A stretch of 35,047 bases of DNA from a virus (IMGVR_UViG_2534682060_000007:1-35047), one strand, 5' to 3'. Shown: positions 2,040 to 25,113, counted from the first letter of the stretch. Translations and numbers: made by a program. Notes: generated from the letters alone by a model not told the origin.

Positions 2040-2052
2040 CAGAGGTCTATTG

Positions 2053-2958: not shown

Positions 2959-2970
2959 GTCTCACCATTT

Positions 2971-3004: not shown

Positions 3005-3017
3005 ATGGGTGCATTTT

Positions 3018-4648: not shown

Positions 4649-4651
4649 TTA

Positions 4652-5419
4652 TCACCCCATAGATATCGATGTTTCGGTAATAATACGTTTTGCGTCCAAC
4701 TCCCATGCTGTGATCACGTCTGCAATCACACTTATCGGCGCTTGTGTGGCATAAATACGCTCTTCTCCAATTGGTGCTGAAACATCCGTAAAGCCGACTT
4801 CTTTGGCATCCTGTATCGAGCAAATCAGCGGGACCGGGACACGAACAAGGTGAGTGGTTGCTTCAAATTGTGTACCTGTCATCAGGCGAAGCCGTGCGCC
4901 CAGCGAATTACACATCAGACTCATGGTCGCTTTATCAGTTGCCATTAACGTAACGTCATACGTCAGAATGGCCTGGGTGTATTCCAGTTCTGCTAAAGGC
5001 GTTCCGGTATCTGGTTCGCAAAAACAGGCTACTTTTTTGCGGTCAATCTGCTGATCATCGTTGATATAATTGATATCCATAGTGCGTGAGATATTGACCA
5101 GGGGGAGAGCATCCCGGTTAATGTTCTGGTTTTCAGGTTTTCTCCCTTGCCCGGCATTTGCGCGACGAACTGCTTTAAGAAACTCGATCGCATTGTCGAA
5201 ACGGGCCATATAGACACGCTCTGCTGGTGGACGATTCAGGAATGACGCAAAGCGTTTTTCTTCCGGCGCGGGGGCCACCAGTAAGATATCAGAAAAAATG
5301 TTGCTGATTAGCGTCGCAAACGCGTTATCCACGTTTTCAAAGCCCGTGGTCTGGAATTTTCCTGTGCGTAAGGTTTGCCATTCACCGGTTCGCGCCAGGA
5401 GGGTTTTATTTGAAGTCAT
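4652..5419 (-). CDS. hypothetical protein, second gene of coupled four-gene operon
   Basis: 255-aa ORF, ATGA start/stop overlap with upstream gene. Confidence 0.6.
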   Translation of the reverse strand: MTSNKTLLARTGEWQTLRTGKFQTTGFENVDNAFATLISNIFSDILLVAPAPEEKRFASFLNRPPAERVYMARFDNAIEFLKAVRRANAGQGRKPENQNINRDALPLVNISRTMDINYINDDQQIDRKKVACFCEPDTGTPLAELEYTQAILTYDVTLMATDKATMSLMCNSLGARLRLMTGTQFEATTHLVRVPVPLICSIQDAKEVGFTDVSAPIGEERIYATQAPISVIADVITAWELDAKRIITETSISMG

Positions 5420-6219
5420 TCGATCACTCCGTTTTGAGTCGTATCAAAATTCCTGGCAGGTATGCAGTAGTAAAGCGAACCAACATGCTGTGTGCCGTAG
5501 CTAAAAATACGGTGCACGTACCACCAGCGGCGGGCTACGCCGTTTACCATCTCTTCATTCCATTCAAGAATTGAGCCGACGGGGACGTTATTTGCTGCAA
5601 TACGCAGAATCAGAACATCATCGGTTAAGCCATCCTGCTCACCGTCTGCGTCAATTGCATGGAAAGAGTCACGCCCGTCAGGGTTATCCAGCACATAAAC
5701 AATTTCAGGTTCCTGATAGGTCAGTTCACGCTGGTTGTTATCCAGTTCAGTGAATGACTCTTCTCCTGTTTCGTCGCTGACTACCCCAAATGTGCCAACA
5801 TCAGGTCGATATAAGAGAGCCTGAAACGCATCTGGGCTGGATTCAATAATCAGCATCCAGTCTGCGCGGATTTGGTCGTTAAAGGCTTTATGCCCGTTAT
5901 AGCGTGCTTTTAACTGTGGAGTCGGTTCTCTGCCAGCCAGGGAAGATGGAAGTATGGCTATATCTGATTCGCCAGCATCCGGAGTAAGGCCACCGTTGCT
6001 ATCAGCAAAATTATCATGGCTATCAGCTTTGGCGGCGGGTTGCTCTTCCGGAATGCTGAATGAATCCGAACCGGTATTGCCATGTTCCGGCGCGCCTCCT
6101 GCATTCGCTTCAATCGGCGCTGGCGTTTCTCTCTGCGTGCTGTCATGTTCTGACTCCTTACTTGCCAGGTTTGCATCGTCAGCAAACCATTCGTCAAAAC
6201 GGCCCATAAGCATCCTCAA
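5416..6219 (-). CDS. hypothetical protein with acidic low-complexity N-terminal region, first gene of four-gene operon
   Basis: 267-aa ORF; ORF-table start at 6219 is a TTG; more likely start is ATG at about 6207 with GAGG RBS. Confidence 0.55.
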   Translation of the reverse strand: MRMLMGRFDEWFADDANLASKESEHDSTQRETPAPIEANAGGAPEHGNTGSDSFSIPEEQPAAKADSHDNFADSNGGLTPDAGESDIAILPSSLAGREPTPQLKARYNGHKAFNDQIRADWMLIIESSPDAFQALLYRPDVGTFGVVSDETGEESFTELDNNQRELTYQEPEIVYVLDNPDGRDSFHAIDADGEQDGLTDDVLILRIAANNVPVGSILEWNEEMVNGVARRWWYVHRIFSYGTQHVGSLYYCIPARNFDTTQNGVIE

Positions 6220-6369
6220 AGGTCGATCTGTCAGGTATCGAAAGGAAGATTTTCGGGAGATTGTGATTTTGGATGAAGGAGGGGGAATTTATAAAATGCA
6301 CTTGCGCACAGTGCAACGGTGCGCTATAGTTATGGCATTCGGTAATCATCACGGAGGATCAAATGACTA

Positions 6370-6672
6370 ATGACCAAAAAAATTAACATAAAGGATTTCA
6401 GGGATGCGTGGCTTGATGATTTTTTTGAATTTTCAACACCACATAGAAAGATACCTCCTGATATTCATATGACATTGTCACGGAAGTTGGACATTATCAA
6501 TGCCGCAACTACCTGTAAGGATTTAAGATCACCACCAGGTAATCGGTATGAGGAACTGTCAGGGAAGCTAAATGGCTATTCATCAGTAAGGGTGAATAAG
6601 CAATATAGGTTAATTTTTAAGTGGGTTAACGGAAAGGCCGAGGACTTGTATCTCGACCCTCACAAATACTAA
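6370..6672 (+). CDS. higB: HigB-like killer toxin (RelE/ParE superfamily)
   Basis: 100 aa; C-terminal YRLIFKW...DLYLDPHKY pattern typical of HigB-like killer proteins; GGAGGA RBS; directly precedes HigA-type antidote. Confidence 0.7.
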   Translation: MTKKINIKDFRDAWLDDFFEFSTPHRKIPPDIHMTLSRKLDIINAATTCKDLRSPPGNRYEELSGKLNGYSSVRVNKQYRLIFKWVNGKAEDLYLDPHKY

Positions 6673-6742
6673 AACAGATACCCGGTTACGGACCGGGTTC
6701 TGACCAGAGTCCACTTAATACGCACGCTAGTAAGGGCAAAAA

Positions 6743-7081
6743 ATGAAACAGGCAACCAGAAAACCGACGACCGTAGGTGATATCCTGCTGTACGAATACC
6801 TGGAGCCGTTAGAGCTGAAGATCAACGAGTTGGCAGAAATACTTCATGTTCATCGTAACACCGTAAGTGCTCTTGTTAATAATAATCGTAAGCTAACGAT
6901 GGATATGGCATATCGCCTGGCAAAAGCATTCGATACTTCTGTAGATTTTTGGATTAATCTTCAGACCGCAGTAGACCTGTGGGAAGTCGAAAATGATATG
7001 CGCGTTCAGGAAGAGTTAAGTCGTATCAATACTGCTGAAAAATTTATTTCTCAGCGGAACCTGAATAAAAAAGCAGCCTGA
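6743..7081 (+). CDS. higA: HigA antitoxin (XRE-type HTH antidote)
   Basis: VGDILLYEYLEPLELKINELAEILHVHRNTVSALVNNNRKLTMDMAYRLAKAFDTSVDFWINLQ matches HigA/VapI-type HTH antidote pattern. Confidence 0.8.
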   Translation: MKQATRKPTTVGDILLYEYLEPLELKINELAEILHVHRNTVSALVNNNRKLTMDMAYRLAKAFDTSVDFWINLQTAVDLWEVENDMRVQEELSRINTAEKFISQRNLNKKAA

Positions 7082-7137
7082 TATAGTAAAACACATACAA
7101 AAAGCCCACTTAGCAAGTGGGCTTTCCTTTGTAATTA

Positions 7138-7497
7138 ATGAACATTAAACCTATCCGTACAGAACAAGATTATGAGGCCGCACTGCGTGCGGTCGAACCG
7201 ATGTTCGATAATGAACCGGAAATGAACACACCGGAAGGCGATTTCTTTGAGGTTATGTGTCTTCTCATTGAGGAGTACGAGAAAAAACATTACCCAATTG
7301 AGCCACCATCACCTATTGAGGCCATTAAATTCCGTATGGAACAGCAAGGACTGACCGTGAAGGATCTGGAACCGGCAATTGGTAAGTCAAACCGTGTTTA
7401 CGAAGTGCTTAATGGGACACGAAATTTGACGTTACCTATGATTCGTCGTTTACATGCCCAGTTTGGTATTCCACTGGAAAGTCTGATTGGTGTTTAA
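7138..7497 (+). CDS. second HigA-family protein (E. coli HigA/YgjM-like, C-terminal HTH) with no cognate toxin upstream
   Basis: Architecture and motifs (GLTVKDLEPAIGKSNRVYEVLNGTRNLTLPMIRRLHAQFGIPLESL) resemble the YgjM-type HigA antitoxin as recalled. Confidence 0.65.
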   Translation: MNIKPIRTEQDYEAALRAVEPMFDNEPEMNTPEGDFFEVMCLLIEEYEKKHYPIEPPSPIEAIKFRMEQQGLTVKDLEPAIGKSNRVYEVLNGTRNLTLPMIRRLHAQFGIPLESLIGV

Positions 7498-7641
7498 GTT
7501 TTGCGGTCTGGATGACCGCTGTTTTTATAAAAATAGATACTAGAAATTTGGTAGCATATATGAGTACAGATTCATCAATAAAGAAGGCAGCCGAATCAGA
7601 TAAAGAAAATGGGGGGGCCGATTGATGCCGCCAAGGATGTA

Positions 7642-8340
7642 ATGGAATATGTTATAAAGGATAAATTGTTTAATAAAGTATTTGCATATATTTTTATCTC
7701 GTTTTTAGTTGTTAATTGGCGAGATATATTAATACTAATTAAATCAAAAGAAGATATTCTTTATACACTATCAATAGTATTTGTTGGTGGCAAATTACCG
7801 TTTCTTGGTGGTGTTGTTTTATCACCGTGGGTTGCTCACTTTTTCTTGCCGTTTGTTTATGGCGTGATTGCGTCAATTGTGGCGCCAATAGTTACTCTAG
7901 CTGTATCTTACGTTACAACCAACATATATCATGAAATAAAATTTTTAGATGAAAATGCCTATGAAAATCAACTTAAAAAACAAGCAAAGAAAGCCAAAGA
8001 AAGAATTGATATTGAAATGAATGGTAAGTATAGCCAAAAAGTATTAGACGAAAGAAAAAAAGACCTGGAAGATATTGATAATGCGATTAAAAATAAACAA
8101 ATTAACTTTGATAAAAAAAGAAAAGAGTTTGCTGATAATATAAATTTAACATATGATAACATTCTCAGTTTAAGCGAATTATATAAGAATGGAGGGTTCA
8201 AAATTGAAAATCAGCAGGATTTATATAAATTCCTTTCTGCAGTAAAGGAATCATCATTCAATAACATAAATTTTGATAAATTATTCTCTGAAATTTCCCG
8301 CTTGCATTCTGAAATGCAAACTGATTTATCAGAAAAATGA
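7642..8340 (+). CDS. membrane protein with N-terminal TM helices and long K/E-rich coiled-coil C-terminus, in very AT-rich DNA
   Basis: Hydrophobic segments FAYIFISFLVVNW and LSIVFVGGKLPFLGGVVLSPWVAHFFLPFVYGVIASIVAPIVTLAVSYV; start placed at ATG 7642 with AAGGA RBS (ORF-table start 7609 lacks RBS). Confidence 0.55.
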   Translation: MEYVIKDKLFNKVFAYIFISFLVVNWRDILILIKSKEDILYTLSIVFVGGKLPFLGGVVLSPWVAHFFLPFVYGVIASIVAPIVTLAVSYVTTNIYHEIKFLDENAYENQLKKQAKKAKERIDIEMNGKYSQKVLDERKKDLEDIDNAIKNKQINFDKKRKEFADNINLTYDNILSLSELYKNGGFKIENQQDLYKFLSAVKESSFNNINFDKLFSEISRLHSEMQTDLSEK

Positions 8341-8375
8341 AAGCCTGGCATAAACCACCAGGCTATATGTGTGGT

Positions 8376-9569
8376 TTATGCTTTTTTTACATACTCCATG
8401 AACATTTTTTTAGCTTGTGCTGGTGGTGTTCCAGCCATGACAAGCGCATCAATGAACGCCTGCTTCTTCAGTGCGAACTGATCGGCCAGGCGTTGCTGAA
8501 GCTCCTTGTTTTTCTGTTTCTCACGTTGCAACGCCGCTTCTTTTGCTGCCGCCCGTTTTTTCTGTGCGTCTGACAACTTTCTGGCCTTGGTCAGTTGGTC
8601 ACGTAGCTTGTCAATCTTGCCGTTGTCCTTTGCCAGTTTTGTGCTTAAAGCGGCCTGGCGCTTCTGATAGAGCCTCCATTCTCGCTTGGCAGCGTCAACG
8701 TTCGTTTTACTGCTACGATTGCGATTAAACTCCTTCTCGTCTTCTTTTGAGAAGTGTTTGGTTGTACGGCGGCGATCGTCACCAAATGCAATTTGCGTTG
8801 CAGCCTTTTGTAGCGCACGAGCAATACTCATTTGCCAACTGGCGGACTGTAACCGCGTCATTGAGTGGATCACGTGTTTACAGGCGACGCCTTGCAGCTT
8901 CGGGTTGCGAACTTTTGGATAGGCGTATTCTTTTGGCGGTGCCAGGGCAAAGTTACCCGCAGTGGCGATGTAACGATACCAGTATTGATGACGACCACAG
9001 TCACAATCGAAAGACACTCGCCCGGCGCACAGTGATTTAGTGATTTTGAGAGCTGATTTATCGTCTTCTGCGATGTCATCAACCATCTGATCCCATTCTT
9101 CAAAGCGTATCCGGACGATATGGTGCTGGTGGACGGATATATCCGATGCTTCTACGCGGATATTAATCACATTGTGGCGAAGAGATACGGGTGTAGCTCT
9201 TTTGATACCAGATCCGTCATCCACGGCGTTATTTGCACGCTTAATATCGATTGCCTGGCTGGATGCCACCAGCTGGGCGTATGTGATGCCAGCCGTCTTG
9301 CTGTCATATTTTTCGCGCGTTTTACTCCGTAGCTTTTCGAAACCTTTCAGGTCGTCTCGCGTGAAGAACGTGCCGCCTTTTTTCTTCCCTAACTTGAGAA
9401 TATCTTCGGCGGATTTGTTCCTCAGTCTACCTGGCGTCAGCGTCCGGTGAGCTTGTCGGCGCTTACGGGTTTGTTCTTTCCTGATAAGGTCGAATAAACG
9501 CGTGAAGTCCTTAGAGGACAGGCCGTCAGTGATATAGCGCCCGTCCTGGTTTTTCAGGAAATCAGGCAT
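8376..9569 (-). CDS. SWIM-type zinc-finger protein with K/R-rich coiled-coil C-terminus
   Basis: CDCGRHQYW...GVACKHVIH fits a C-x-C...C-x-H SWIM-like motif; GGAG RBS; start overlaps stop of upstream 109-aa gene. Confidence 0.55.
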   Translation of the reverse strand: MPDFLKNQDGRYITDGLSSKDFTRLFDLIRKEQTRKRRQAHRTLTPGRLRNKSAEDILKLGKKKGGTFFTRDDLKGFEKLRSKTREKYDSKTAGITYAQLVASSQAIDIKRANNAVDDGSGIKRATPVSLRHNVINIRVEASDISVHQHHIVRIRFEEWDQMVDDIAEDDKSALKITKSLCAGRVSFDCDCGRHQYWYRYIATAGNFALAPPKEYAYPKVRNPKLQGVACKHVIHSMTRLQSASWQMSIARALQKAATQIAFGDDRRRTTKHFSKEDEKEFNRNRSSKTNVDAAKREWRLYQKRQAALSTKLAKDNGKIDKLRDQLTKARKLSDAQKKRAAAKEAALQREKQKNKELQQRLADQFALKKQAFIDALVMAGTPPAQAKKMFMEYVKKA

Positions 9570-9891
9570 TTTCTATCTCCGGTTCCGCGCTCGCGTAATC
9601 ACGGATCTTGTTCCTCAGCCATGCCACATCAGGAAGAGTTAACGTGGTCCCGGCGGGCATTTCTTCCATTTCTGACTCATGGCCCACCAGCACCCGGAAT
9701 ACCCAGCGCAAATCTGCATTGCCATACGCCCTGTAGGCTGCAAGGTCTGAACGATATACTTCATCAATCTTTATCGTGTACTGGAAATTATCAGAGTGAT
9801 ACTCCGATACCCGCTTAATCATTTCCTGGTGAAACAGCGCACGAAAAATATCGTCTTCAATGTACCTATCGTCGAGTCTGCTATAGCCCAT
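9562..9891 (-). CDS. hypothetical protein co-transcribed with SWIM protein
   Basis: 109-aa ORF, 8-nt overlap with downstream gene. Confidence 0.5.
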   Translation of the reverse strand: MGYSRLDDRYIEDDIFRALFHQEMIKRVSEYHSDNFQYTIKIDEVYRSDLAAYRAYGNADLRWVFRVLVGHESEMEEMPAGTTLTLPDVAWLRNKIRDYASAEPEIENA

Positions 9892-10084
9892 AACAAAGCC
9901 TCTCAGTCATAACCTGGGGGAAACTGTATGCAGGGTGTGAAATGCGAGAAACAGACAGGCCACCAGTTCAGGGGGATGTGGTTCATAAATCCCCTCACTG
10001 GTGACAAGTGACTTTCATTAATCTTTATGCGGGGGCCAGCTTCATTTGCTGGCATTAGATTAAAAATTAAACGGAGTGAATGAC

Positions 10085-10219
10085 ATGGATGTTATCTTCA
10101 AATTATTAATGCTAATTGATCTGTTTATGAACGCTTCATTGACCACTCAAATACTCGCGTCAATATTTTTGTTACTCTTCTACCTGGTATTGAGGGAGTT
10201 AACAAAGCTACTAATGTGA
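10085..10219 (+). CDS. candidate small hydrophobic peptide (44 aa)
   Basis: ATG with GGAG RBS about 8 nt upstream; translation MDVIFKLLMLIDLFMNASLTTQILASIFLLLFYLVLRELTKLLM; not in ORF table (under 60 aa). Confidence 0.25.
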   Translation: MDVIFKLLMLIDLFMNASLTTQILASIFLLLFYLVLRELTKLLM

Positions 10220-10873
10220 TCAAAGTATCACGGTATCTTCATCAACTTCTTTCCCAGCCAGTGACTTTGGCTGGGAGGTGCCTGCTTTAACTTTTTCATG
10301 CCCAATAATGGACAGGAACGAAGCGAGTATGCCTGTTTTTTGCTCTTTCTCGACTGTACCGGTCATCTGCTCTACATAATCTGCACTGGCAACGTTGTGG
10401 TATACGGTCGCGTAGCAACACAGGATCATCAGAATATGCTCCGGCCTGATATCCTGCCAGTTCACCCTGTAGACTTCTTCTCCGTTACCGTTGTATTCGG
10501 TATCAACGATAGAGTCGGGGATTTCGAAAGCACCTTTGTTATTTTGCGGCAGGGATAATAGTTTCTGGAGTTTTAACTCTCTGTATCTTTCCATCCCGAC
10601 GATGATTGCTGCTCTACCATCGGCATGACGGGTCTTGAGAGTCACCTGACTTGCTCCGGTGCCAGCGGAGATCGTTGGCGTAATTTCGTCTACTAGAACC
10701 TTAAATTTGCTTTTCCGCAGGGCTGCTATAGCTGGAGGAATTTTTTGCTTTTGCTCCAATGCTGACGCGGGAAGGGGTTTTACTTCGTTAATAATGAGAG
10801 CACCGTCTTTCAGTATTGCAGTGAGCATTTGAGGCTTGCTGGTGGTCAGGCTGAATATTGCGATCTTTTCCAT
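10220..10873 (-). CDS. hypothetical phage protein
   Basis: Start placed at ATG 10873 (MEKIAIF...) with GGAGG RBS; ORF-table start 10915 is upstream in-frame. Confidence 0.6.
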   Translation of the reverse strand: MEKIAIFSLTTSKPQMLTAILKDGALIINEVKPLPASALEQKQKIPPAIAALRKSKFKVLVDEITPTISAGTGASQVTLKTRHADGRAAIIVGMERYRELKLQKLLSLPQNNKGAFEIPDSIVDTEYNGNGEEVYRVNWQDIRPEHILMILCCYATVYHNVASADYVEQMTGTVEKEQKTGILASFLSIIGHEKVKAGTSQPKSLAGKEVDEDTVIL

Positions 10874-13702: not shown

Positions 13703-13885
13703 AATGGCAGCCTCCTTTTGCTAATTTAAGGAGCTACCGCGTGAGGTTCCAATCTCAATGGCGGTAGCACTGACTGGGTTGGAACTACCGGCGCAAAAGG
13801 GAACCGGCCTGCCTTTCGGCAGCCCAGCCAGCACTACCATTGATCTCTGAGCTAAACGCTACGTATGGCTGTGCGATGGCATGAC
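13703..13885 (-). ncRNA. candidate structured leader / antisense-type regulatory RNA upstream of the antirepressor operon
   Basis: Several inverted repeats: 13733-13740/13761-13768 (8 bp), 13763-13778/13823-13838 (16 bp, perfect only with G-U pairs in the minus-strand transcript), GNRA hairpin near 13806-13821. Confidence 0.3.
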
Positions 13886-13887
13886 AC

Positions 13888-13910
13888 AAAAAAAGACGCT
13901 TTCGGCGTCT
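13888..13910 (-). terminator. Rho-independent terminator (minus strand)
   Basis: Hairpin agacgc/gcgtct followed on the minus strand by a 7-U run. Confidence 0.5.
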
Positions 13911-14014
13911 GTGTCGCCTTTTGCATTATCCGGGGTTCCAATCCCGGCACCCGTTTTTCTAAGGTGCCGTAGAAATATACCCCACGATAATGCCAGGGCG
14001 CAACAGTCAGTATT

Positions 14015-15140: not shown

Positions 15141-15174
15141 GGTTAGATATTCAAAATTGATTTTCTAACACAAA
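15141..15174. promoter_or_regulatory. recurring motif site 3, inverted pair in divergent promoter region
   Basis: GGTTAGATAT at 15141-15150 and inverted TTTTCTAACACA at 15161-15172, between the HNH-like gene and the rightward early operon. Confidence 0.4.
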
Positions 15175-15976: not shown

Positions 15977-16290
15977 GCTGGCGGGGATGGGGAAGGGCAG
16001 AAATCATGATACTCCGCCAGTGCGCCGGAGCTATGACGGTCGAGAGTATTGGGAAGCTGATCGGTCGTACCGGTGATGCCGTCAGGACTAAAGCGCGAGA
16101 GCTTGGGATCAGCATGATTCTGAAAGGTGACTTTCACCAGTCAGCCAAATACCGGCAGAGCGATATAGAGCTGGCGCGGCAGCTTCATCAGTGTGGCGTT
16201 CCCCGCCGTGAGATCGCGGAAAAACTCGAAATGCCCCTGAGCATGATTAATCAGTACGTTTATTTCGAAAGGAGAGTGTATGAAGTCTGA
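15973..16290 (+). CDS. small putative DNA-binding protein
   Basis: 105-aa ORF with two HTH-like segments; overlaps neighbours. Confidence 0.5.
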   Translation: MSWRGWGRAEIMILRQCAGAMTVESIGKLIGRTGDAVRTKARELGISMILKGDFHQSAKYRQSDIELARQLHQCGVPRREIAEKLEMPLSMINQYVYFERRVYEV

Positions 16291-16768
16291 AGGTTTAACG
16301 CCCGCACAACTGGCAGAGCGTAACGCTGAGTATGTAACGGAAATTTCCCGACTTGAGAAAGCGTGTGCTGCGCTGGCGGCGGAGAATGCTGGGCTGAAAC
16401 ATGCAATGGCTGTAACTCTTGAGCATGTGTCGGTCACGGATGCAGGTCAGGCCGGAGTTGCTGCAATGATTATCAACGATGCCCTGCACCACAGCGAAAC
16501 TCCAGCCACCGATGCTTTTCTGGCTGAAATTCGTGCGGCGGCTCGCAACGAGGGGATTAACTATACCGCAAGCCGTCTTGCTGCTGCTTTCAACCACGGA
16601 TTTATCAATAAGTCTTTACGTGAAGTTTTCGACGTTACGCGCATGATTCTGTCAGCGAAAGAAGAGTTGGCTAATGAACCGCACCCGATTGATGGCCTGT
16701 CCGGTGAATATGCGGAGAAATCCCTTGAAGAATGGGCGGAACAGATTCGCAAAGGAGCTGACAAGTGA
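16280..16768 (+). CDS. paralogous coiled-coil early protein (Ea22-like family), copy 1
   Basis: Coiled-coil LEKACAALAAENAGLK and C-terminal domain shared with 17172-17969 and 17966-18607 (TD.FL.E......EG....A.R....GFI...........ARMIL...E...N, ...IRKG). Confidence 0.6.
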   Translation: MKSEGLTPAQLAERNAEYVTEISRLEKACAALAAENAGLKHAMAVTLEHVSVTDAGQAGVAAMIINDALHHSETPATDAFLAEIRAAARNEGINYTASRLAAAFNHGFINKSLREVFDVTRMILSAKEELANEPHPIDGLSGEYAEKSLEEWAEQIRKGADK

Positions 16769-17175
16769 AGAGGATGATTTTTGTGGCGGCATTGCTGACC
16801 ATTACCCAACAGGCGCAGGCTTCAGCAGTTATTGTGGCATCTACCGCCGCGACCACGGCTGCTGTAGCTGCTGCGAACTCTGCGAATATCGCAAACCAAC
16901 AGTCACAGCGTGCTGCCAATGCATCAGCCAGTGTTCACCCAATCGCCATTAAGGCCAGCAAGAAAAATATAGGTTTCATAACATGCGGCAAACGTTCTGA
17001 CGAGGCTGTAGGTTCACTTGGATGTACGGTATATGGGGATAGTGAGAGTAGAGAAATTCCATGGAAAACGTGGCCCGGATATGTTCTCGGCTCGAAGCTC
17101 CCTGCCAGCTATGAAGTAAACGCCGTATCGTTTGATCACTATAACGGCGTGGCAACGGTCTATTTTGCATATTGA
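16765..17175 (+). CDS. secreted hypothetical protein
   Basis: Signal peptide MKRMIFVAALLTITQQAQA; ATGA overlap with upstream gene. Confidence 0.5.
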   Translation: MKRMIFVAALLTITQQAQASAVIVASTAATTAAVAAANSANIANQQSQRAANASASVHPIAIKASKKNIGFITCGKRSDEAVGSLGCTVYGDSESREIPWKTWPGYVLGSKLPASYEVNAVSFDHYNGVATVYFAY

Positions 17176-17969
17176 GGCTCCGCATGAAATTCTCCAAATT
17201 TTCTGAGTTGGTGAATCGTATTTTGTCCAACAACCACAGCCATCGTCGCGATATGGATGTAACGATCGTTGTTCATTCGCCTGGCAGCATTGGTTCAACA
17301 CCCTCAGTTGAGGTTCAGTCAATTCACGCTGGTTTTGATTGGGATTCCGGGAAAGTGCTGATTTTCCCAGCACAGCCACTGACTACGCTAACACCAGAAC
17401 AGATTACTGATATTACTGATAGTGTGCGCAAAGGTCAGTCCTGGCACGCATATCAGGAATATAAGAAGCATAAAGAGCAGTTGGAAAAATTATCGATTGA
17501 ACTTGATACCGCAAAACAGCGCATTGCAGAGCTGGAGGGTAATCGCGCGGCGCTGGCTGCGGAGAATGCGAGACTGAAGGCGATATGTGAGGATCGCCGC
17601 ACGTTCATTATGAATGGCGTGCAGCTTGGTTTTATCAAAGTGCCAACAGTGGAAATAGATCCAGCTCTTGAAACAATTCGTATCGCCCTATCACCACAAA
17701 AAACCACTCCTGCGACCGACACTTTCCTGGATGAAGTGAAGACTGAAGCACGCAAGGAGGGCGCTTACTTTGTGGCGAACAGAATGCTGGCTGCTTGGGA
17801 AGCTGGTTTTATTGATGATACTGCGAAGAACGCCGCGGATATTGCCCGGATGATTCTTACCTCTACTGAGTTTATGGCTAATGCGCGGGAAGGCGATTTT
17901 GACCGCTCATTCTCTGATGGCGTTCTCGAAGATATCGCTGAACAGCTTCGCAAAGGAGGCAGCCAGTGA
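17172..17969 (+). CDS. paralogous coiled-coil early protein (Ea22-like family), copy 2
   Basis: Coiled coil AKQRIAELEGNRAALAAENARLK plus shared C-terminal domain ending EQLRKGG. Confidence 0.6.
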   Translation: MRLRMKFSKFSELVNRILSNNHSHRRDMDVTIVVHSPGSIGSTPSVEVQSIHAGFDWDSGKVLIFPAQPLTTLTPEQITDITDSVRKGQSWHAYQEYKKHKEQLEKLSIELDTAKQRIAELEGNRAALAAENARLKAICEDRRTFIMNGVQLGFIKVPTVEIDPALETIRIALSPQKTTPATDTFLDEVKTEARKEGAYFVANRMLAAWEAGFIDDTAKNAADIARMILTSTEFMANAREGDFDRSFSDGVLEDIAEQLRKGGSQ

Positions 17970-18607
17970 GCGAGCTTTACTATCATACGTTACGTGAACG
18001 TTTTTCACCGAAACCAGCGCCTAAATGCTCTGTTTGTGGCGAGGAAATGTCAATGCAGCGCATATCTGGATCACATGTTGTTTATGCCTGTTCCGGCATG
18101 GAGGACGACGGATGCTTCAAAACTGGACGAACTTATGCTGACGAGCATTACAAAAAATCGCGCATAACAGTAGTTGATGATAGCGATCCTGATGTGATTG
18201 AACTGCTGGACGAGAACATGGAGATGGCTCTAACGCTTGAGAAGCTGCGTGTTGAGCTGGAGGCTGCTAAACAGCGTATTGCCGAATATGAAAGCAATTG
18301 CGGGGCGATGGTGGCGGAATGCCAAAGCAAAAAAGCAGCACTTGAGGCAATTCTTAGCCATTGCCCAATTAATCATCCAGATATAGACATCGCATGTATA
18401 GCGAACATCGCTCATAACGAATTAGGCGAGGCGAAAAGCACTACATCTAAGGCATACCTTGTAGAAATACAGGCACAAGGGGTGGAGGCATTCGCTTTGA
18501 CGATGCGCGATACCGGAGATGATCCATTTTTTGATTCCGTTGCTTCTGCTTGCGCGGATGCAGCTGATAGGTTCGCTGACCAGCTTCGAAAAGGAGGCAA
18601 ACAGTGA
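17966..18607 (+). CDS. paralogous coiled-coil early protein (Ea22-like family), copy 3
   Basis: LTLEKLRVELEAAKQRIAEYE coiled coil; N-terminal Cys pairs; C-terminus ADQLRKGGKQ. Confidence 0.6.
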   Translation: MSELYYHTLRERFSPKPAPKCSVCGEEMSMQRISGSHVVYACSGMEDDGCFKTGRTYADEHYKKSRITVVDDSDPDVIELLDENMEMALTLEKLRVELEAAKQRIAEYESNCGAMVAECQSKKAALEAILSHCPINHPDIDIACIANIAHNELGEAKSTTSKAYLVEIQAQGVEAFALTMRDTGDDPFFDSVASACADAADRFADQLRKGGKQ

Positions 18608-18852
18608 GTAATACCGCACGACTACAGCTTGGTTTTTCACCGCTATCAAAAACCATCGTGTTGGCAAAAATGCGTGACTTAGGGGATGGAACAAAACGTC
18701 GTGTCGGCAATGATCGCGGTCGTGATGTAACCAACGAGGCCGCACAACTCGTTTGGCATCTAGTCATGGCTGAAGGCGGTGAAATTAATTGGGAGCTGGA
18801 TGATGGTTCTCGCATGGTATTAAAGGCAGAAAAGCAGGAGCCACCACAGTGA
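18604..18852 (+). CDS. hypothetical protein
   Basis: 82-aa ORF, overlapping start/stop with neighbours in operon. Confidence 0.45.
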   Translation: MSNTARLQLGFSPLSKTIVLAKMRDLGDGTKRRVGNDRGRDVTNEAAQLVWHLVMAEGGEINWELDDGSRMVLKAEKQEPPQ

Positions 18853-19157
18853 ATATCGACACCACGATAACGATCGATACGGCCCTAAATACCGGTCTGG
18901 CACTTCTCGGTTGGCTTTACATCATGTCCCGTACCTGGCGATGGCTGGGTTCCATTTTCCTAAAAGAGTGGAAAAAACGGCGCAAACAGGAACTACGCCA
19001 GAAGGCATTAGAAGCGTTCTATGACGCATTTGAACTTAGCCGCATTGAACCAGGCACAACAGCCAGAATAGCGATAAAAGGCGACCTGATGATAGTGATG
19101 TTCAGACAGGAGAAACCAAATGACAGAACAGACGATGACAAATCGCGAACTTGTTGA
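18849..19157 (+). CDS. small membrane protein
   Basis: One predicted TM helix (ALNTGLALLGWLYIMS) followed by basic stretch. Confidence 0.45.
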   Translation: MNIDTTITIDTALNTGLALLGWLYIMSRTWRWLGSIFLKEWKKRRKQELRQKALEAFYDAFELSRIEPGTTARIAIKGDLMIVMFRQEKPNDRTDDDKSRTC

Positions 19158-19344
19158 TGCCGCGATTGAACTTGCTGGCGATTTTTATTCCATGATGGGT
19201 TACGAGCATCGACCTGGTTTTAAGTATTGGGAGTCACCGCATCCGCAAGAACAACAGGTGTTTGAAATGGCCTGCCGTGCTTTTGAGGTTATTCGCGGTT
19301 CTGATGTGATGGAGGCCGTTGCCGACTTGGAGGATGAAGAGTGA
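19120..19344 (+). CDS. hypothetical acidic protein
   Basis: 74-aa ORF in operon; true start may be an internal ATG. Confidence 0.45.
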   Translation: MTEQTMTNRELVDAAIELAGDFYSMMGYEHRPGFKYWESPHPQEQQVFEMACRAFEVIRGSDVMEAVADLEDEE

Positions 19345-19652
19345 GCATCATTAAAGAAATGCCGGTAGAACGTGATGAATATGGCTGCTGGACACATCCG
19401 GAGTATGAGAAGTTTTGCGCAGGTCGTGAATATATTTCCACTGAGGAATTTGACGCCTGGATGAAGGAAAATAATCTTCAGTGGACTATTCGCAGTATGG
19501 ATGAAGATGATTTTGATCTGGACGCAGCTGGTCCCGATATTGCCGCCTGGGAACCGGAGCGACCAGAGGGTGAAGGCTGGTTTGTTGGCTCTATTCATGA
19601 CACTGAAGATGGTCCAGTTTGTATCTGGCTGCGGGAGAAGGTTGCCGCATGA
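19341..19652 (+). CDS. hypothetical protein
   Basis: 103-aa ORF (GTG start), ATGA overlap with phosphatase gene. Confidence 0.45.
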
Positions 19653-20341
19653 TCCAGACTATGCATGAAGTGAATTTATATAGCCGTATTGATGGTTCTG
19701 GCTACAGAAACATATGGGTTGTTGGTGATCTGCATGGTTGCTACACCAGACTGATGTCCGAACTCCATCGTGTGGATTTTGACCCGGCGCAGGATTTACT
19801 GATATCGGTTGGCGACCTTATCGATCGCGGTACTGAAAATGTCGAATGTCTGGAACTATTGCAGATGCCCTGGTTCAGGGCAGTAATGGGGAACCATGAG
19901 CGGTTGATGCTTGATGCGTTAAGTCCTGATGGCAACGTGAATAACTGGCTAATGAATGGCGGACAATGGTTCTTCATGCTGGGCACTGATCAGGAAATAT
20001 TAGCCAAGGCGCTGGTGGAGCTGGTAAAGCGTCTGCCATATATCATTGAGTTGAACACCGGGCATGAAACTATCGTTATAGCCCATGCCGACTATCCAGG
20101 TGGAGAGTACCAGTTCGGTAAGGATGTGTCGCTTTTTGATGTTGTCTGGTCGCGCAGTCGCGTCGGTGATTCGATAGATGGCATTGGTGGAGAAATCACA
20201 GGCGCAGATCGCTTTATCTTTGGGCACACACCGGTACGAAGACCAAAAGCATACTGGAATCAGCACTACATAGACACGGGCGCGGTTTTTTGCGGAAATC
20301 TGACGCTAATGCAGGTGAAGGGAGGGAAGCTTAAAGTCTGA
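19649..20341 (+). CDS. serine/threonine protein phosphatase (lambda NinI / PPP family)
   Basis: Metallophosphatase motifs GDLHGC, GDLIDRG, GNHE; start at ATG 19649 (MIQTMHEV). Confidence 0.85.
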
Positions 20342-20366
20342 TCAAATCATTTACGCACTCAAAATT

Positions 20367-20400
20367 ACGTTAGAACATTGATTTTAGTTTTCTAACATAT
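20367..20400. promoter_or_regulatory. recurring motif site 4, inverted pair
   Basis: CGTTAGAACA at about 20368-20377 and inverted GTTTTCTAACATA at 20387-20399, just upstream of the 20440 gene. Confidence 0.4.
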
Positions 20401-20439
20401 TATTTTACCGATCGGAACAAAACAGAGTCGGTATGCATT

Positions 20440-21435
20440 ATGAGTGCAATAATCACCCCATATGTCGTAAATGAAACTGGTGTGGCTGTCTTTCCTGTAG
20501 ATAAGCCCACCAGCAATTACATCGGCGCAGGACGCCGTTTTCTTATATCCCCATTGCCGCGTGAACAGGCTGAAAACACCCCTGATGGTGTCGTTGACCT
20601 GAATTATTCACTGGTTGCCAACCAGTCACTGGCACCCTTTTTTCAAAGTGAGCGTGTATTTAACGCGTTAGGTGGTGAGGATTCTCTCGTTCACTGGGTT
20701 AGCACCAACATTCACGATTGCCAGGCGCATGATAAGCGCGATTGCAGCCACCAGCTAACCACCCATTTCTATAACGGTTCTGCCGTTCGCCTGTGCTGGA
20801 AGCATGATGCGGAATACATGATGAAGGGATACGGCAAGCTGGAAGACCAACTGTCACGGAATCGCGCCAACTGGATTATGAACTGGGCTGCCAGCGAGTT
20901 AAAACTTCCGCCGGATCGCGATCTGAGCATGGTTGAACTCACCTTTTGGGCCATTCGCCGGAATCTTAAAGACGAACTGCCTGATGAAGCTGGTCGCATT
21001 GCATTTTGTCAGCCAAAAACTGAAATCCCTACCGGTACGCTGAAAGAATCAGATATCACCTGGGAGCACAGTACCCGCGAGCTGGTGGACATAACCGCAG
21101 AGCAGATCGTCAACCTGTCTGTAGATGAGGATTCCGGCCTGCTTTATATGCGCCGACCAAAAGCGGTCCTCGGTAAAAGCCCGGCTTATCTCCGGTTTGT
21201 GGTTTCTCGTCCGTGCATCGGATGCGGTGGCAAAGTTAACCACCCGTTCATGTACCGCGCCCGCTCGTTAAACGAACACGACCGCTGGGCTGTTCCTCTT
21301 TGCGATGACTGCGCCAGAAGCGCAGAAAACGATGTTCGGGCATGGGAAAAAGCACATGGCATACGCCTTTACGTAGCCGCTAACCAGCTTTTTGACTTCG
21401 CCATCGAGCGCGGAGTGATCACGTTCAATAACTGA
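20440..21435 (+). CDS. phage protein with C-terminal Cys-rich zinc-binding / HNH-like motif
   Basis: C-terminal RPCIGCGGKVNHPFMY...NEHDRWAVPLCDDCAR (C-x2-C ... H ... C-x2-C). Confidence 0.55.
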   Translation: MSAIITPYVVNETGVAVFPVDKPTSNYIGAGRRFLISPLPREQAENTPDGVVDLNYSLVANQSLAPFFQSERVFNALGGEDSLVHWVSTNIHDCQAHDKRDCSHQLTTHFYNGSAVRLCWKHDAEYMMKGYGKLEDQLSRNRANWIMNWAASELKLPPDRDLSMVELTFWAIRRNLKDELPDEAGRIAFCQPKTEIPTGTLKESDITWEHSTRELVDITAEQIVNLSVDEDSGLLYMRRPKAVLGKSPAYLRFVVSRPCIGCGGKVNHPFMYRARSLNEHDRWAVPLCDDCARSAENDVRAWEKAHGIRLYVAANQLFDFAIERGVITFNN

Positions 21436-21451
21436 TGAGGTGGATCAAAAA

Positions 21452-22138
21452 ATGAAAGAACGCGGGATGATTTTTAACGATGAGATGGTCAGGGCCATCC
21501 TCGAAGGAAGGAAAACGCAGACGCGGCGGATAATGAAAAATCAGCCTGCGGAAGTTGGTCCAGAAGCACCAGTGATGGTTAGAAAAATTGGTGCAGGTTT
21601 TCAGTGGTACGGGGCTGATGGTGTAAGCAGTGTTTTCAATTGCCCCTTTGGTATCGTCGGCGATCGAATTTGGGTTCGTGAAACATGGGCGATATTAGGC
21701 AATGAAGATGGTTGCAGTGTGGACTGGAACGACAACCTTTGTCGTGACGATGAGAAGAACGCAGCAAGGATTTATCGGGCCAGTTGTGAGCAAAAGCCTG
21801 GTGATTACGGTTTGTGGTCGATACCCGATGATGCCGACTGGAAACCTCACACTGTGAATGAAAAGTTTGATGGCGGGTGGCGTCCATCAATTCACATGCC
21901 GCGCTGGGCTTCGCGTATTTTGCTGGAAATTACCGACGTGCGTGTGGAACGGCTGCGTGATATGAGCGAGGCAGATGCTAACGCAGAAGGCGCATCTCCG
22001 GCGATGTACAAAATTACGCCGCCGGAAGCTGTTTATCGCGTTGGTTTTGGTGATATCTGGCGCAGTATTTACGGGCAGGATAACTGGCTATCTAACCCGT
22101 GGGTATGGGTAATCGAGTTTAAGCGCGTTCAGGAATAA
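21452..22138 (+). CDS. ASCH/PUA-like domain protein
   Basis: N-terminal MVRAILEGRKTQTRR resembles the ASCH GxKxxExR motif (imperfect); start ATG 21452. Confidence 0.5.
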   Translation: MKERGMIFNDEMVRAILEGRKTQTRRIMKNQPAEVGPEAPVMVRKIGAGFQWYGADGVSSVFNCPFGIVGDRIWVRETWAILGNEDGCSVDWNDNLCRDDEKNAARIYRASCEQKPGDYGLWSIPDDADWKPHTVNEKFDGGWRPSIHMPRWASRILLEITDVRVERLRDMSEADANAEGASPAMYKITPPEAVYRVGFGDIWRSIYGQDNWLSNPWVWVIEFKRVQE

Positions 22139-22141
22139 ACC

Positions 22142-23020
22142 GTGAGTATGCATCAAGTTGTCAGCTTTTCAGGTGGACGAACATCGGCTTATCTCGTTCA
22201 TCTGATGGAAGCACAGCGAAAAGCTGGCGCTAGCGTCCATTTCATTTTTATGGATACCGGCTGTGAACATCCTCTGACGTATCGCTTTATTCGTGAGGTT
22301 GTGAAGTTCTGGAACGTACCGCTAACGGTGTTGCAGGTCGATATAAATCCAGAACTTGGGCAGCCAAATGGTTATACGGAATGGGAACCAAAGGATATTC
22401 AGACGCGAATGCCGGTGCTTAAACCGTTTATGGACATGGTTAAAAAGTACGGTACGCCTTACATCGGCGGCGCGTTCTGTACTGACAGGCTAAAACTCAC
22501 CCCTTTCACGAAATATTGCGATGACCATTTTGGGCGAGGGAATTACATCACATGGCTGGGTATTCGTGCGGACGAACACCGTAGGCTGAAACCGAAACCG
22601 GGCGTCCGGTATCTTGCAGAACTGTCAGATTTTGATAAGTCGGATGTTATTCGGTGGTGGCGAAAACAACCTTTTGATTTGCAAATCCCGGAGCACCTCG
22701 GGAACTGTGTTTTTTGCATCAAAAAGTCAACGCAAAAGCTGGGGCTTGCATGTAAAGACGAACCTGGTCTGATGCGGGTTTTTAATGAACTGGTTACAGG
22801 CAAACACGTCAGGGATGGTCATCGCAGAACAGGTAAAGACGTTATGTACCGTGGTCACCTGACGCTTGACGGGATTGCCAGAATGTATGCCGACAGCGAC
22901 TACAGAAATTTGTATCAGGCGATGGTGCAGGCCAAGCGGTTTGATACTGGTTCGTGTTCCGAATCATGTGAAATCTGGGGTGACCAATTGGAGTTGAAAT
23001 TCGAAGAGGTAGTGGTATGA
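22142..23020 (+). CDS. phosphoadenosine-phosphosulfate (PAPS) reductase-family protein
   Basis: PP-loop VVSFSGGRTSAYL near N-terminus; several Cys clusters toward C-terminus. Confidence 0.7.
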   Translation: MSMHQVVSFSGGRTSAYLVHLMEAQRKAGASVHFIFMDTGCEHPLTYRFIREVVKFWNVPLTVLQVDINPELGQPNGYTEWEPKDIQTRMPVLKPFMDMVKKYGTPYIGGAFCTDRLKLTPFTKYCDDHFGRGNYITWLGIRADEHRRLKPKPGVRYLAELSDFDKSDVIRWWRKQPFDLQIPEHLGNCVFCIKKSTQKLGLACKDEPGLMRVFNELVTGKHVRDGHRRTGKDVMYRGHLTLDGIARMYADSDYRNLYQAMVQAKRFDTGSCSESCEIWGDQLELKFEEVVV

Positions 23021-23583
23021 CAAACAAAATTGACTATCAAAAACTTCGTGAAATCGCTGAAAAAACAAAAATTGCTGGTGAAGCACCTGTAATGCCTTTC
23101 GATCAGCGAATTAATGCGCTTAACGATTTTATGAAGCACTTTTCGCCAGATATCGCGCTGGCATTGTTGGATGAACGGGAAAGAAACCAGCAATACATCA
23201 AACGCCGCGACCAGGAGAACGAGGAAATTGCGCTAACGGTAGGGAAGCTGCGTGTTGAGCTGGAAGCCGCAGAGAAGCGCATTGCAGAACTGGAAGCACG
23301 GGAAATAAAACCAGCCAAAGGCGAAGTTCTTGTCGTTGTTTCTGGTTTTACTGGTTGCGGAAAAAGCGCCATCGCCGGGGAAATAGAAATTGCGATGAAA
23401 GCTATTGGTGTGCCGGTTCAATGGACTAATGGCGATGCAGAAAAGCATATGACCGGCGCTGACTGGCTGACAGCGATTGAGATGTACAAACCAACTGTGC
23501 GCATCGTGGAAGTTAATGTGCCACGCGTCGCTGGCATTTGCATCAAAGGAGACGCAGGAGAGCAAAACGATGAAAAACCGTAA
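23017..23583 (+). CDS. coiled-coil early protein related to the Ea22-like paralogs
   Basis: Shares LTVGKLRVELEAAEKRIAELE segment, also at DNA level, with 17966-18607. Confidence 0.55.
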   Translation: MTNKIDYQKLREIAEKTKIAGEAPVMPFDQRINALNDFMKHFSPDIALALLDERERNQQYIKRRDQENEEIALTVGKLRVELEAAEKRIAELEAREIKPAKGEVLVVVSGFTGCGKSAIAGEIEIAMKAIGVPVQWTNGDAEKHMTGADWLTAIEMYKPTVRIVEVNVPRVAGICIKGDAGEQNDEKP

Positions 23584-23758
23584 AGCAAAGATTCTGTTAG
23601 TTCGTAGAAACGCCCCTAGCGTCTGGCAGTGGGTGAGACTCAGCAACCGACGGATGGGGTTGATGAAATATTACGGGATGATGGATTGTGGTTTTTGCAA
23701 AAAGCCCAGCGCGGCGCAAAACCGCTGGAAAAACCATTTGCGCACTAAAGGAGAGTGA
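23570..23758 (+). CDS. small basic hypothetical protein
   Basis: ATG 23570 with GGAGAG RBS; ORF-table start 23477 overlaps upstream gene. Confidence 0.4.
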   Translation: MKNRKAKILLVRRNAPSVWQWVRLSNRRMGLMKYYGMMDCGFCKKPSAAQNRWKNHLRTKGE

Positions 23759-24033: not shown

Positions 24034-24480
24034 ATGACCACTATTACCAAAGAGCGACTGCTGACAATCAGGCAGTGGCGCGAAACATACGGACCTGGTA
24101 GCAACGTTGTACTGCCAGCAGAAGAAGCGGAAGAACTGGCGCGGATTGCGCTGGCATCGCTGGAAGCAGAACCGATGGCATGGCGATATCGCTACGTGAA
24201 AAAAGGCATTACGGACTCACAGGGGGAGCCGTGGGTTGGTGACTGGAAATATGTACCGACAAAAGAGGATTGCAACGACAGACCGAACTATGAAATTCAG
24301 GCGTTATTCACTGCCCCGCCTGTGCCACTGACACCAGAAGGATTGATTAAAGCAGTGCGCTTCTATGAACAGGTTAAGCGTGAAAATCCGCCAGTCGAAA
24401 CCGGAGCATGGAAAGACGCTGTTGACTGGGTGCTCAAAGAGGCTTGCCAGGCTGTAAACATTGGCATCAAAGGAGAGTGA
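24034..24480 (+). CDS. hypothetical protein (paralog of 24619-25113 N-terminus)
   Basis: Shares IALASLEAEP segment with the next gene. Confidence 0.55.
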   Translation: MTTITKERLLTIRQWRETYGPGSNVVLPAEEAEELARIALASLEAEPMAWRYRYVKKGITDSQGEPWVGDWKYVPTKEDCNDRPNYEIQALFTAPPVPLTPEGLIKAVRFYEQVKRENPPVETGAWKDAVDWVLKEACQAVNIGIKGE

Positions 24481-24482
24481 GG

Positions 24483-24608
24483 ATGTTCAATAATTTGCCT
24501 GGTACTGGTTTTTTCGTTGTTTTCGGTGTCATTTGCGCCGTTATTGGTTGGGCAGTTATTGAGTCCATTCTTTGGCTGCTTTCTTTCATTCACATAACTA
24601 TTGGTTGA
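24483..24608 (+). CDS. candidate small membrane peptide (41 aa)
   Basis: ATG with GGAG RBS; translation MFNNLPGTGFFVVFGVICAVIGWAVIESILWLLSFIHITIG; not in ORF table. Confidence 0.3.
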   Translation: MFNNLPGTGFFVVFGVICAVIGWAVIESILWLLSFIHITIG

Positions 24609-24618
24609 GAACTGACCC

Positions 24619-25113
24619 ATGACCACTTTCACCGACAAAGAACTGATTAAAGAAATCAAAGAACGCATAGGCAGCCTGGACGTTCGAGACAATATTGAGC
24701 GCCGTGCTTATGAAATTGCACTGGCATCACTGGAAGCAGAACCGGTGGTTTACATGTGGGATAGCGAAAGAAAAGATATTGATGCCCCTGGGTATTATCG
24801 GACTGAGCATTTAGTGTTCGCTGAGAGTAGTGTTAAGCAATGGGGAGGGCGAGTTGTTCCACTTTACACCGCCCAGCCAGTGCCGGTAACTCCGGATGGT
24901 TGGATAAGCTGTAGTGAGCGGATGCCTGAAAAGAACCAGAACGTGCTTATTTCGGTGAATTTCGATAGCTCTCTGGTTGAACCGCTAATATGCTCCGCAC
25001 GCTATACCGGAAGCACCTTTCGGCGCGGAGATGCAACGATTAAGCCGGGTAATGGTATTGAGCAAGCAACTCACTGGATGCCGCTACCGGAACCGCCGCA
25101 GGAGGCGAAATGA
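24619..25113 (+). CDS. hypothetical protein (paralogous N-terminus, distinct C-terminal domain)
   Basis: 164-aa ORF in operon. Confidence 0.55.
   Translation: MTTFTDKELIKEIKERIGSLDVRDNIERRAYEIALASLEAEPVVYMWDSERKDIDAPGYYRTEHLVFAESSVKQWGGRVVPLYTAQPVPVTPDGWISCSERMPEKNQNVLISVNFDSSLVEPLICSARYTGSTFRRGDATIKPGNGIEQATHWMPLPEPPQEAK

Follow-up and report, generated by a model that had tools for sequence, protein, structure and literature searches.

Genes and features of the locus

The 35-kb stretch of viral DNA analysed here (IMGVR_UViG_2534682060_000007:1-35047; the window, hereafter) carries an accessory operon in which four plus-strand genes, g1 (16280-16768), g2 (17172-17969), g3 (17966-18607) and g5 (23017-23583), encode mosaic proteins of the Ead/Ea22 family. 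The operon runs rightward from ∼15365, beside ref, and comprises two dozen or so short plus-strand genes extending to ∼26950, most of which are joined via 4-nt stop/start overlaps (GTGA or ATGA). An open reading frame (ORF) check recovered all four genes at these coordinates. The original prediction had g1, g2 and g3 as neighbours: the ORFs are as it gave them, but g1 and g2 are not adjacent, being separated by an unrelated ORF on the same strand (16765-17175; 136 aa). The latter has a signal-peptide-like N-terminal segment and an Ala/Ser/Thr-rich stretch, matches phrog_8805 (1e-85), lies outside the Ea22 family, is coupled to g1 through a GTGA overlap and is found in 29 related loci. The fourth gene, g5, is located ∼4.4 kb beyond g3.

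The host element is, to judge from its sequence, an Escherichia coli phage-plasmid of the P1/D6-like kind, not a lambdoid phage. The closest DNA matches of the window are E. coli plasmids of 91-97 kb and phage D6, a relative of P1, and the gene neighbours include those for Ref, Icd, Ant, tail proteins, a DNA methyltransferase and a Cre-like recombinase. Additionally, Rfam identifies a C4 antisense RNA (13757-13844, minus strand, 76.7 bits) and isrK (13889-13967, minus strand, 62.5 bits); placed upstream of the icd/ant genes, they make up the immI immunity region typical of P1-type phages, which confirms the type of element. These two, at 13757-13967, are the sole Rfam matches, no RNA family being found on either strand of the region that holds the Ea22-like genes. 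The Ea22-like genes sit between ref and the hot/humD end, rather than in the exo-xis (early-left, pL) location of lambdoid phages, and the lambdoid early-left setting to which they had been likened gives way to a P1/D6-like phage-plasmid, as indicated by the plasmid and D6 matches, the neighbouring genes and the C4 RNA.

Family membership of the encoded proteins

The Ea22-like character proposed for these genes is borne out by Pfam family PF13935 (Ead_Ea22), above whose gathering cutoff of 27 bits both g3 (48.5 bits) and g5 (71.6 bits) score, and by the 47% identity of g5 to lambda Ea22 (NP_040612) over 123 residues of the N region and coil (E = 2e-26). g3 aligns with lambda Ea22 in the coil only (E = 2e-7). 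All four genes match phrog_368; g3 does so end to end (1e-52), and g1 matches both phrog_614 (8e-58) and phrog_368 (1e-40). The near-identical database relatives of g5 bear the NCBI name ead/Ea22-like, the equivalents of g1 and g2 are hypothetical proteins in RefSeq, and relatives in P1-like plasmids are already annotated as ead/Ea22-like. The four genes add new members to the mosaic Ead/Ea22 family, which was known and annotated already. A scan of NCBIfam gave nothing above cutoff, and no solved structure was matched significantly by the sequences of g2, g3 or g5.

Ea22 is described as having three parts, forming a tetramer and favouring lysogeny (PMC10834534, PMC7093339). The same three-part plan, with a variable N region, a central coiled coil and a separate C-terminal domain, is apparent here from the alignment and the predicted helices. 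AlphaFold models, built from alignments of 21 sequences for g2 and 11 for g5, contain a long helix at residues 71-147 and 44-94, respectively, with a predicted local distance difference test score (pLDDT) of 70-86, and other elements flank the helices.

Cassettes and linkers

The relatives comprised 79 viral contigs fetched with g2, together with the best 240 listed protein homologues of g2 and g5, out of more than 8000 protein hits. Their proteins share a plan (alignment A1) in which a variable N head, a MID cassette and a C-terminal cassette are set apart by four short, constant linkers, each of which is a patch of DNA homology of 30-60 nt. The first two, LEKL.VELEAAKQRIAELE and AALAAENA.LK, follow one another after the N head; then come MID, the linker TPATDAFLAEVRA, the C-terminal cassette and finally A.QLRKGG.Q-stop. 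Optional inserts are found within the coil.

The four genes present this plan in different guises. In g1 (162 aa), a short N head leads via AALAAENAGLK (16367-16399) into a MID cassette, TPATDAFLAEIRA (16499-16537) and a helical C-terminal cassette, and the protein closes with EQIRKGADK-stop, the tail bearing AAAGGAG plus GTGA. The g2 protein is 265 aa long if started from the TTG at 17172 and 261 aa from the ATG at 17184, from which, rather than the TTG, its homologues are annotated; it consists of a beta-rich N domain (phrog_6026), the coil linker LEKLSIELDTAKQRIAELE (17481-17537), AALAAENARLK (17547-17579), a MID cassette, TPATDTFLDEVKT (17706-17744), a C-terminal cassette and the tail EQLRKGGSQ-stop. 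g3 (213 aa) has an Ead-type N region with an inserted Cys4 zinc-ribbon-like segment, the coil linker LEKLRVELEAAKQRIAEYE (18236-18292), a diverged second linker, STTSKAYLVEIQA (18437-18475), a short C-terminal cassette and the tail FADQLRKGGKQ (18572-18604). Finally, g5 (188 aa) combines an Ead N region with the shortest version of the coil, VGKLRVELEAAEKRIAELE (23239-23295), and a C-terminal module (23302-23580), of which ∼75 residues are conserved and which bears a Walker-A-like GFTGCGKS.

Among 151 distinct proteins that bear the last three linkers, we count 11 N types (a figure biased by the choice of bait; see below), eight unrelated MID types and 14 C-terminal types, occurring in 40 combinations, and seven of the eight MID types are paired with at least two C-terminal types. 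The TPATDAFLAE linker is met in 22 left and 19 right contexts, with a mean DNA identity of 82%. The original prediction of a constant C-terminal domain that carries variable N-terminal ones does not hold: the C-terminal cassette is itself variable (14 types versus 11 for N), and only the linkers are constant. Within the window, g1, g2 and g3 have no cassette type in common in any slot; the C-terminal cassettes of g1 and g2 are distant homologues, and that of g3 is different and shorter. In the relatives of g5, both ends are kept and the zero to three inserts in the coil differ; the g5 segment that was originally flagged is the direct join of two insert borders.

Similarity among the genes of the window

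The protein and DNA-level similarities claimed at the outset are all present. g1 and g2 are 36% identical over 153 aa (E = 6e-21), mostly beyond the coil; the g2-g3 and g1-g3 alignments have E = 1e-9 and 2e-4, respectively, and the coils of g3 and g5 are identical at 20 of 28 positions (E = 4e-9). What g3 has in common with g1 and g2 is confined to linker motifs (YLVEIQA, like FLAEIRA; and FADQLRKGGKQ), placed around its different, shorter C-terminal cassette. When the whole window was searched against itself with blastn for direct repeats, the repeats flagged in the original prediction emerged as the strongest, and the top of the list reads 18212-18296 versus 23215-23298 (78%, E = 5e-11), the gene-end repeat 17935-17970 versus 18573-18608 (E = 4e-6), 17497-17536 versus 23255-23294 (E = 0.007) and 16367-16398 versus 17547-17578 (84%, E = 0.024). 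A fifth repeat, 24145-24178 versus 24715-24748 (91%, E = 4e-6), lies outside the original finding and corresponds to an N module of g6 and g7.

Codon usage was compared at positions where the residue is identical in both genes. The same codon is used at 13 of 20 such positions in the g3/g5 coil (7.3 expected, p = 0.007), at seven of eight in the g2/g3 tail (3.0 expected, p = 0.004) and at six of 10 in the g1/g2 linker (3.3 expected, p = 0.07). Since this excess is modest, and there is none in the g2/g3 coil, the copies in the window are old, diverged relatives that do not stem from recent conversion; nor are they recent tandem duplicates. Recent gene conversion among them was considered and rejected, the longest shared tracts being exact over only ∼20 nt and the g2/g3 coil lacking a codon excess.

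Recombination at the linkers and the origin of the pieces

The exchange of modules by recombination, in contrast, is directly visible, with crossovers inside the very segments that had been flagged. In comparisons of the window with related loci, the ends of blastn matches cluster at 16360, 16490-16520, 16750, 17560-17580 (67 ends) and 17970-17990, and megablast matches across 5426 E. coli genomes start and stop at the same places. Individual recombinants resolve the joints. In L031:3938-4447, nt 1-119 correspond to g1 (93%) and nt 85-510 to g2 (97%), the overlap being exactly the AALAAENA.LK linker. L019:3956-4792 joins the N half of g2 (95%) to the C-terminal cassette of g1 (94%), the MID cassette between the linkers being foreign, and L001:4888-5559 likewise switches partner at a linker. 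A further protein, P0120, has an Ead N region joined at the coil linker to the rest of g2; it is PF13935-positive and 97% identical to g2 across 59% of the length of the latter.

The distribution of the pieces points beyond plasmids. The 8.8-kb operon segment 15300-24100 finds matches in 3779 E. coli records and at 5852 chromosomal places, mainly in prophages, yet coverage reaches at least 80% in only three; a backbone/tail segment of equal length (2000-10800) matches 126 records, nearly all of them plasmids, with at least 80% coverage in 76. From these broad yet partial matches, set against those of the backbone, it follows that the array is a patchwork of pieces common with lambdoid prophages; it is unlikely to have arisen by recent in situ duplication. 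Copies of the cassettes that are 93-99.7% identical occur elsewhere in other combinations, at 1279 chromosomal versus 471 plasmid places; window positions 16370-16757, for example, have a 99.7% match in NZ_CP074879. The contrast in mosaicism between the accessory operon and the tail/backbone, within one element, is sharp.

The conserved tail as a probable translation signal

The last linker has a further property. The codons of RKGG read AAAGGAGG and lie 6-7 nt ahead of the start codon of the following gene, a GTG overlapping the TGA stop. This junction cassette is found at 17937-17969, 16736-16768 and 18575-18607, all on the plus strand. GGA encodes the tail glycine in 98 of 101 distinct ORFs of the family, compared with 18% of glycine codons elsewhere in the operon, and 97 of the 101 end in AGTGA. 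Moreover, AAGGAG occurs 10 times in the operon (3.4 expected), and eight of these 10 sites lie 5-7 nt before a start codon.

A common tail of a basic residue, Gly and Glu is seen across the group: g6 and relatives of g5 end in the lambda-type IKGE-stop (AAAGGAGAGTGA), as does lambda ea22 itself, and g1, g2 and g3 have the variant RKG(G/A)..-stop. g5 ends in IKGD plus a nine-codon read-through (DAGEQNDEKP; 23536-23583, with the tail at 23536-23553), GAG TGA being replaced by GAC GCA. Both forms of g5 are common in databases, at 178-179 and 187-188 aa. A 62-aa basic ORF (23570-23758) overlaps the read-through end of g5; it finishes with RTKGE-stop and places AAAGGAGAGTGAT ahead of an ATG at 23760.

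The simplest reading is that the tail is mainly a nucleotide signal, namely, a putative ribosome-binding site plus GTGA stop/start overlap for the next gene. The IKGE-stop tail is the same device as the RKGG tail, and the tail junction is also a universal site for recombination at gene boundaries. The significance of the '+GE' C-terminal motif of Ea22 is listed as unknown in the literature (PMC7093339); the reading preferred here is the ribosome-binding site plus start overlap of the following gene, instead of a protein motif.

The C-terminal module of g5

The last ∼75 residues of g5 (GEVLVVVSGFTGCGKSAIAGEIEI...NGD.EK...IVE.N) recur in 441 clusters of a library of 1.8 billion proteins at E ≤ 0.001. 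The proteins concerned differ widely, are 110-623 aa long and in some cases look high-GC; the module usually forms their C-terminus and sometimes their N-terminus. It contains a Walker-A-like motif of the form GxxxxGK[ST] after a beta strand (VLVVVSGFTGCGKS), whose G, GK and S do not vary across 19 diverse homologues. The module falls outside every Pfam family, and a Pfam scan of ten long proteins that bear it revealed no partner domains. Matches to P-loop families are sub-threshold (APS kinase, E = 0.019; NCBIfam, E = 0.002-0.09), as are those to UvrA, ArsA and kinases in a profile search of the PDB (E = 0.03-2). AlphaFold models the ∼75 aa as beta-alpha-beta-alpha-beta with a pLDDT of 30-50. 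A role in nucleotide binding is, at this stage, a lead rather than a finding.

Neighbouring genes and a candidate operator

The genes g6 (24034-24480; 148 aa) and g7 (24619-25113; 164 aa), both on the plus strand, lie outside the original finding. They have in common an N module, IALASLEAEP, on different C-terminal parts: g6 matches phrog_660, and phrog_250 over its last 35 aa, and closes with NIGIKGE-stop (again AAAGGAGAGTGA), whereas g7 carries a DUF551 C-terminal domain (PF04448, 1.7e-22). The same shuffling logic is at work in this neighbouring family, and single modules tie both genes to the Ea22 network, so that, loosely counted, six genes are linked. Just past g6, a small ORF (24483-24608) starts 7 nt beyond the AAAGGAG at the end of that gene and encodes a 41-aa hydrophobic, membrane-like peptide.

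Upstream of g5, the gene at 22142-23020 belongs to the PAPS-reductase family; it matches the SspD model (1.4e-13) and, weakly, the DndC and BrxP models, which represent defence systems based on DNA modification. Ahead of it lie two genes (20440-21435 and 21440-22138), one encoding DUF968 and the other without a match to any family, and it may be a DNA-modification or anti-restriction module. Minus-strand ORFs over the genes (e.g. 17014-17379 and 18447-18815) were treated as spurious, since they are antisense to plus-strand genes with strong family support.

The intergenic region between ref and the operon contains a candidate repressor operator, TTGATTTTCTAACA (15157-15170, plus strand), whose role is inferred; a second copy is located inside the operon, at 20384-20397, ahead of the gene that starts at 20440. 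A motif search of the window with the 14-nt TTAGTTTTCTAACA, allowing up to two mismatches, gave seven copies (at 2988, 14504, 15157, 20384, 31626, 32950 and 33037) against 0.23 expected; those placed on the ORF map are intergenic or at gene ends. It looks like a dispersed P1-type operator, a candidate target of the C1-type repressor of the element. If so, the accessory operon would be under immunity control, which would give a hint as to the timing of its expression. Within the operon, a promoter and terminator scan yielded no convincing internal terminator.

Interpretation and alternative explanations

Taken together, the data make it probable that these are mosaic Ead/Ea22 genes in the operon of a P1/D6-like element, whose cassettes are re-assorted at linkers, whose tail is a translation signal, and whose role would be early and lysogeny-biasing. 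The firm part of this account comprises the membership of g3 and g5, the layout of cassettes and linkers, the crossovers in linkers, the exchange with chromosomal prophages and the translational junction. Mechanistically, we envisage a long, tightly packed and translationally coupled operon with four mosaic members of the Ead/Ea22 superfamily, each of which is built as a coiled-coil stalk carrying interchangeable cassettes: N head, coil inserts, MID and C-terminal. Recombination at the linkers has re-assorted these cassettes among homologues in other plasmids and chromosomal prophages, giving rise to the combinations met in the population; the array was probably assembled from imported pieces rather than by recent tandem duplication, and the last linker, with its Shine-Dalgarno site and GTGA overlap, would drive translation of the next gene. 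By extension from the Ea22 proteins of lambda and Shiga toxin (Stx) phages, the products would be nonessential early proteins that form oligomers (tetramers) via the coil and have a separable C-terminal domain. By the same analogy, the variable cassettes would bind host or phage partners and so bias the lysis-lysogeny or maintenance decision. Target recognition, as first proposed, may have diversified.

Several observations weigh against this interpretation. Upstream of the operon, the promoter scan gave no sigma-70 site on the plus strand. Neither g1 nor g2 matches PF13935 at E ≤ 0.1, because the Ead N region is absent from both, and their ties to the family are through the phrog_368, phrog_614 and phrog_492 profiles and the recombinants only. 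The excess of identical codons within the window is real yet modest, and the g2/g3 coil has none (three of 14 positions, 5.6 expected); the same-codon figures in the wider population, 0.69-0.73, are uncorrected for shared ancestry. The use of g2 as bait for related loci biases the counts of N types. The AlphaFold models have mean pLDDT values of only 56 (g2) and 53 (g5), the coil being confident and the cassette parts falling below 50. Moreover, an Ea22-like role for these proteins in a P1-like element would follow by analogy only, and the conservation of the linkers could derive mainly from protein constraints such as oligomerisation.

The last of these points, taken to its conclusion, is the strongest alternative, and we rate its chances as appreciable, if somewhat short of even: the linkers would be kept for the needs of the protein (an oligomer core, hinges, or a shared coil for mixed oligomers), with the crossovers as a by-product. 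Lambda Ea22 is indeed a tetramer through its coil (PMC10834534), the coil is the sole part that AlphaFold models confidently, and a 19-aa coil segment is common to g2, g3 and g5 even though g2 and g3 encode it with different codons, as noted above. However, the tail linker shows constraint in its nucleotides (GGA in 97%, plus a terminal AGTGA), and the linkers are flanked by many different neighbours, as the 22 left and 19 right contexts of TPATDAFLAE at 82% mean DNA identity illustrate. The two explanations are in any case compatible.

It is also conceivable, although we think it unlikely, that the proteins serve in phage-phage conflict or host defence (as anti-defence factors, decoys or agents of superinfection exclusion) rather than in lysogeny, with cassette turnover reflecting an arms race. 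Small heads that vary combinatorially on a constant stalk would suit such a role, as would the presence of several paralogs in each element and the setting in an accessory operon with non-core genes, namely, those for a metallophosphoesterase, the SspD-matching PAPS-reductase-family protein and DUF968. Against this, the 5027 defence-system models of PADLOC-DB 2.0 gave no match for g1, g2, g3, g6 or g7, and the sole match for g5 was a chance-level Avs2 (E = 0.0026) on its Walker-A-like stretch; furthermore, the only experiments on the family show effects on lysogeny (PMC7093339).

A much smaller chance attaches to tandem duplication in place followed by divergence, with exchange with other elements unimportant. 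The head-to-tail arrangement of the genes in one operon, with junction sequences in common, is what it would produce, and unequal crossing-over between neighbours is possible. The paralogs of the window, however, have no variable cassette type in common and no detectable DNA similarity outside the linkers, copies of each cassette with 93-99.7% identity are found in other combinations outside the window, mainly in chromosomal prophages, and only three records retain the operon arrangement; these results already point to nearest relatives of the cassettes in other elements, not in the neighbouring gene.

Lastly, the notion that unrelated genes resemble one another through low-complexity coiled-coil composition only can be given next to no credence: the g3/g5 and g2/g5 matches are limited to a helical segment of 28-36 aa rich in A, E, L and K, and the 16367/17547 DNA repeat is by itself marginal (E = 0.024), but the similarity of g1 and g2 (153 aa, E = 6e-21) lies mostly beyond the coil, curated and profile families match (PF13935, PHROG), neither TPATDAFLAE nor QLRKGG.Q is a coiled-coil motif, and recombinants at 93-98% DNA identity connect the genes.

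A bolder extension of the mosaic account combines two proposals: that the Ea22 superfamily is a natural combinatorial display system, and that the g5 module is an unrecognised nucleotide-binding effector domain. Under the first, the four in-frame linkers would serve as recombination joints at which co-resident prophages and phage-plasmids may re-deal three or four cassette slots. We regard the two proposals jointly as distinctly doubtful, more so than a role in conflict or defence. Were they true, mixed oligomers of the coil-sharing paralogs (g2, g3 and g5) would multiply the repertoire of host and phage targets.

Ea22 merits attention: only a few early proteins of lambda are, like it, reported to influence the lysis-lysogeny decision (it favours lysogeny), Shiga toxin phages included, and the present analysis indicates that its family greatly exceeds the handful published so far and extends into P1-like phage-plasmids. 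For experimenters, the linker layout defines where domains start and end, which should help in the design of constructs, swaps and pull-down experiments. Both the layout and the interpretation of the tail are of use, though incremental; they leave the general picture of phage mosaicism unchanged, and the case is a fairly ordinary one.

Comparison with known systems

The closest characterized relative is lambda Ea22, which tetramerises through its coil, has a C-terminal domain with a structure determined by nuclear magnetic resonance, is encoded in the exo-xis region (PMC10834534) and is dispensable in lambda (PMC10695390). The N region and coil of g5, including LLDERERNQQYIKRRDQENE.IALTVGKLRVELE, resemble those of lambda Ea22, the three-part plan is the same, and relatives of g5 end in ...GIRIKGE-stop, just as lambda does. 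By contrast, the C-terminal domain of g5 is unrelated in sequence, consisting of the ∼75-aa module that bears the Walker-A-like motif; the 18-aa insert of the lambda coil is missing from g5; g1, g2 and g3 have at most the coil in common with lambda Ea22; and the host element here is a P1/D6-like plasmid prophage.

In Stx phages, Ea22 proteins show similarity in blocks and differ in their C-terminal parts, and the 933W gene is split (PMC7093339, PMC8614690). The block mosaicism of these proteins (Phi24B vb_24B_6c, 933W and P27) is of the same kind as that seen here, although the published comparisons are restricted to four or five proteins, and the cited Ea22 literature describes neither the four-linker layout nor the MID slot and does not give this explanation of the tail. 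With respect to the existing classifications (PF13935, the NCBI name ead/Ea22-like and PHROG 368), g3 and g5 are members by score, whereas g1 and g2 are without the Ead N region.

The mosaicism of lambdoid phages reportedly arises by recombination at short conserved boundary sequences, as described by Hendrix, Casjens, Juhala and Clark. The genes of the window resemble that system in the sharp borders of homology around the cassettes, in the short Shine-Dalgarno plus GTGA junctions at gene boundaries and in having pieces common to unrelated phages. They differ from it in that the exchange spans P1-like plasmids and lambdoid prophages, and in that several of the junctions fall inside one reading frame, such that recombination shuffles the domains of a single protein.

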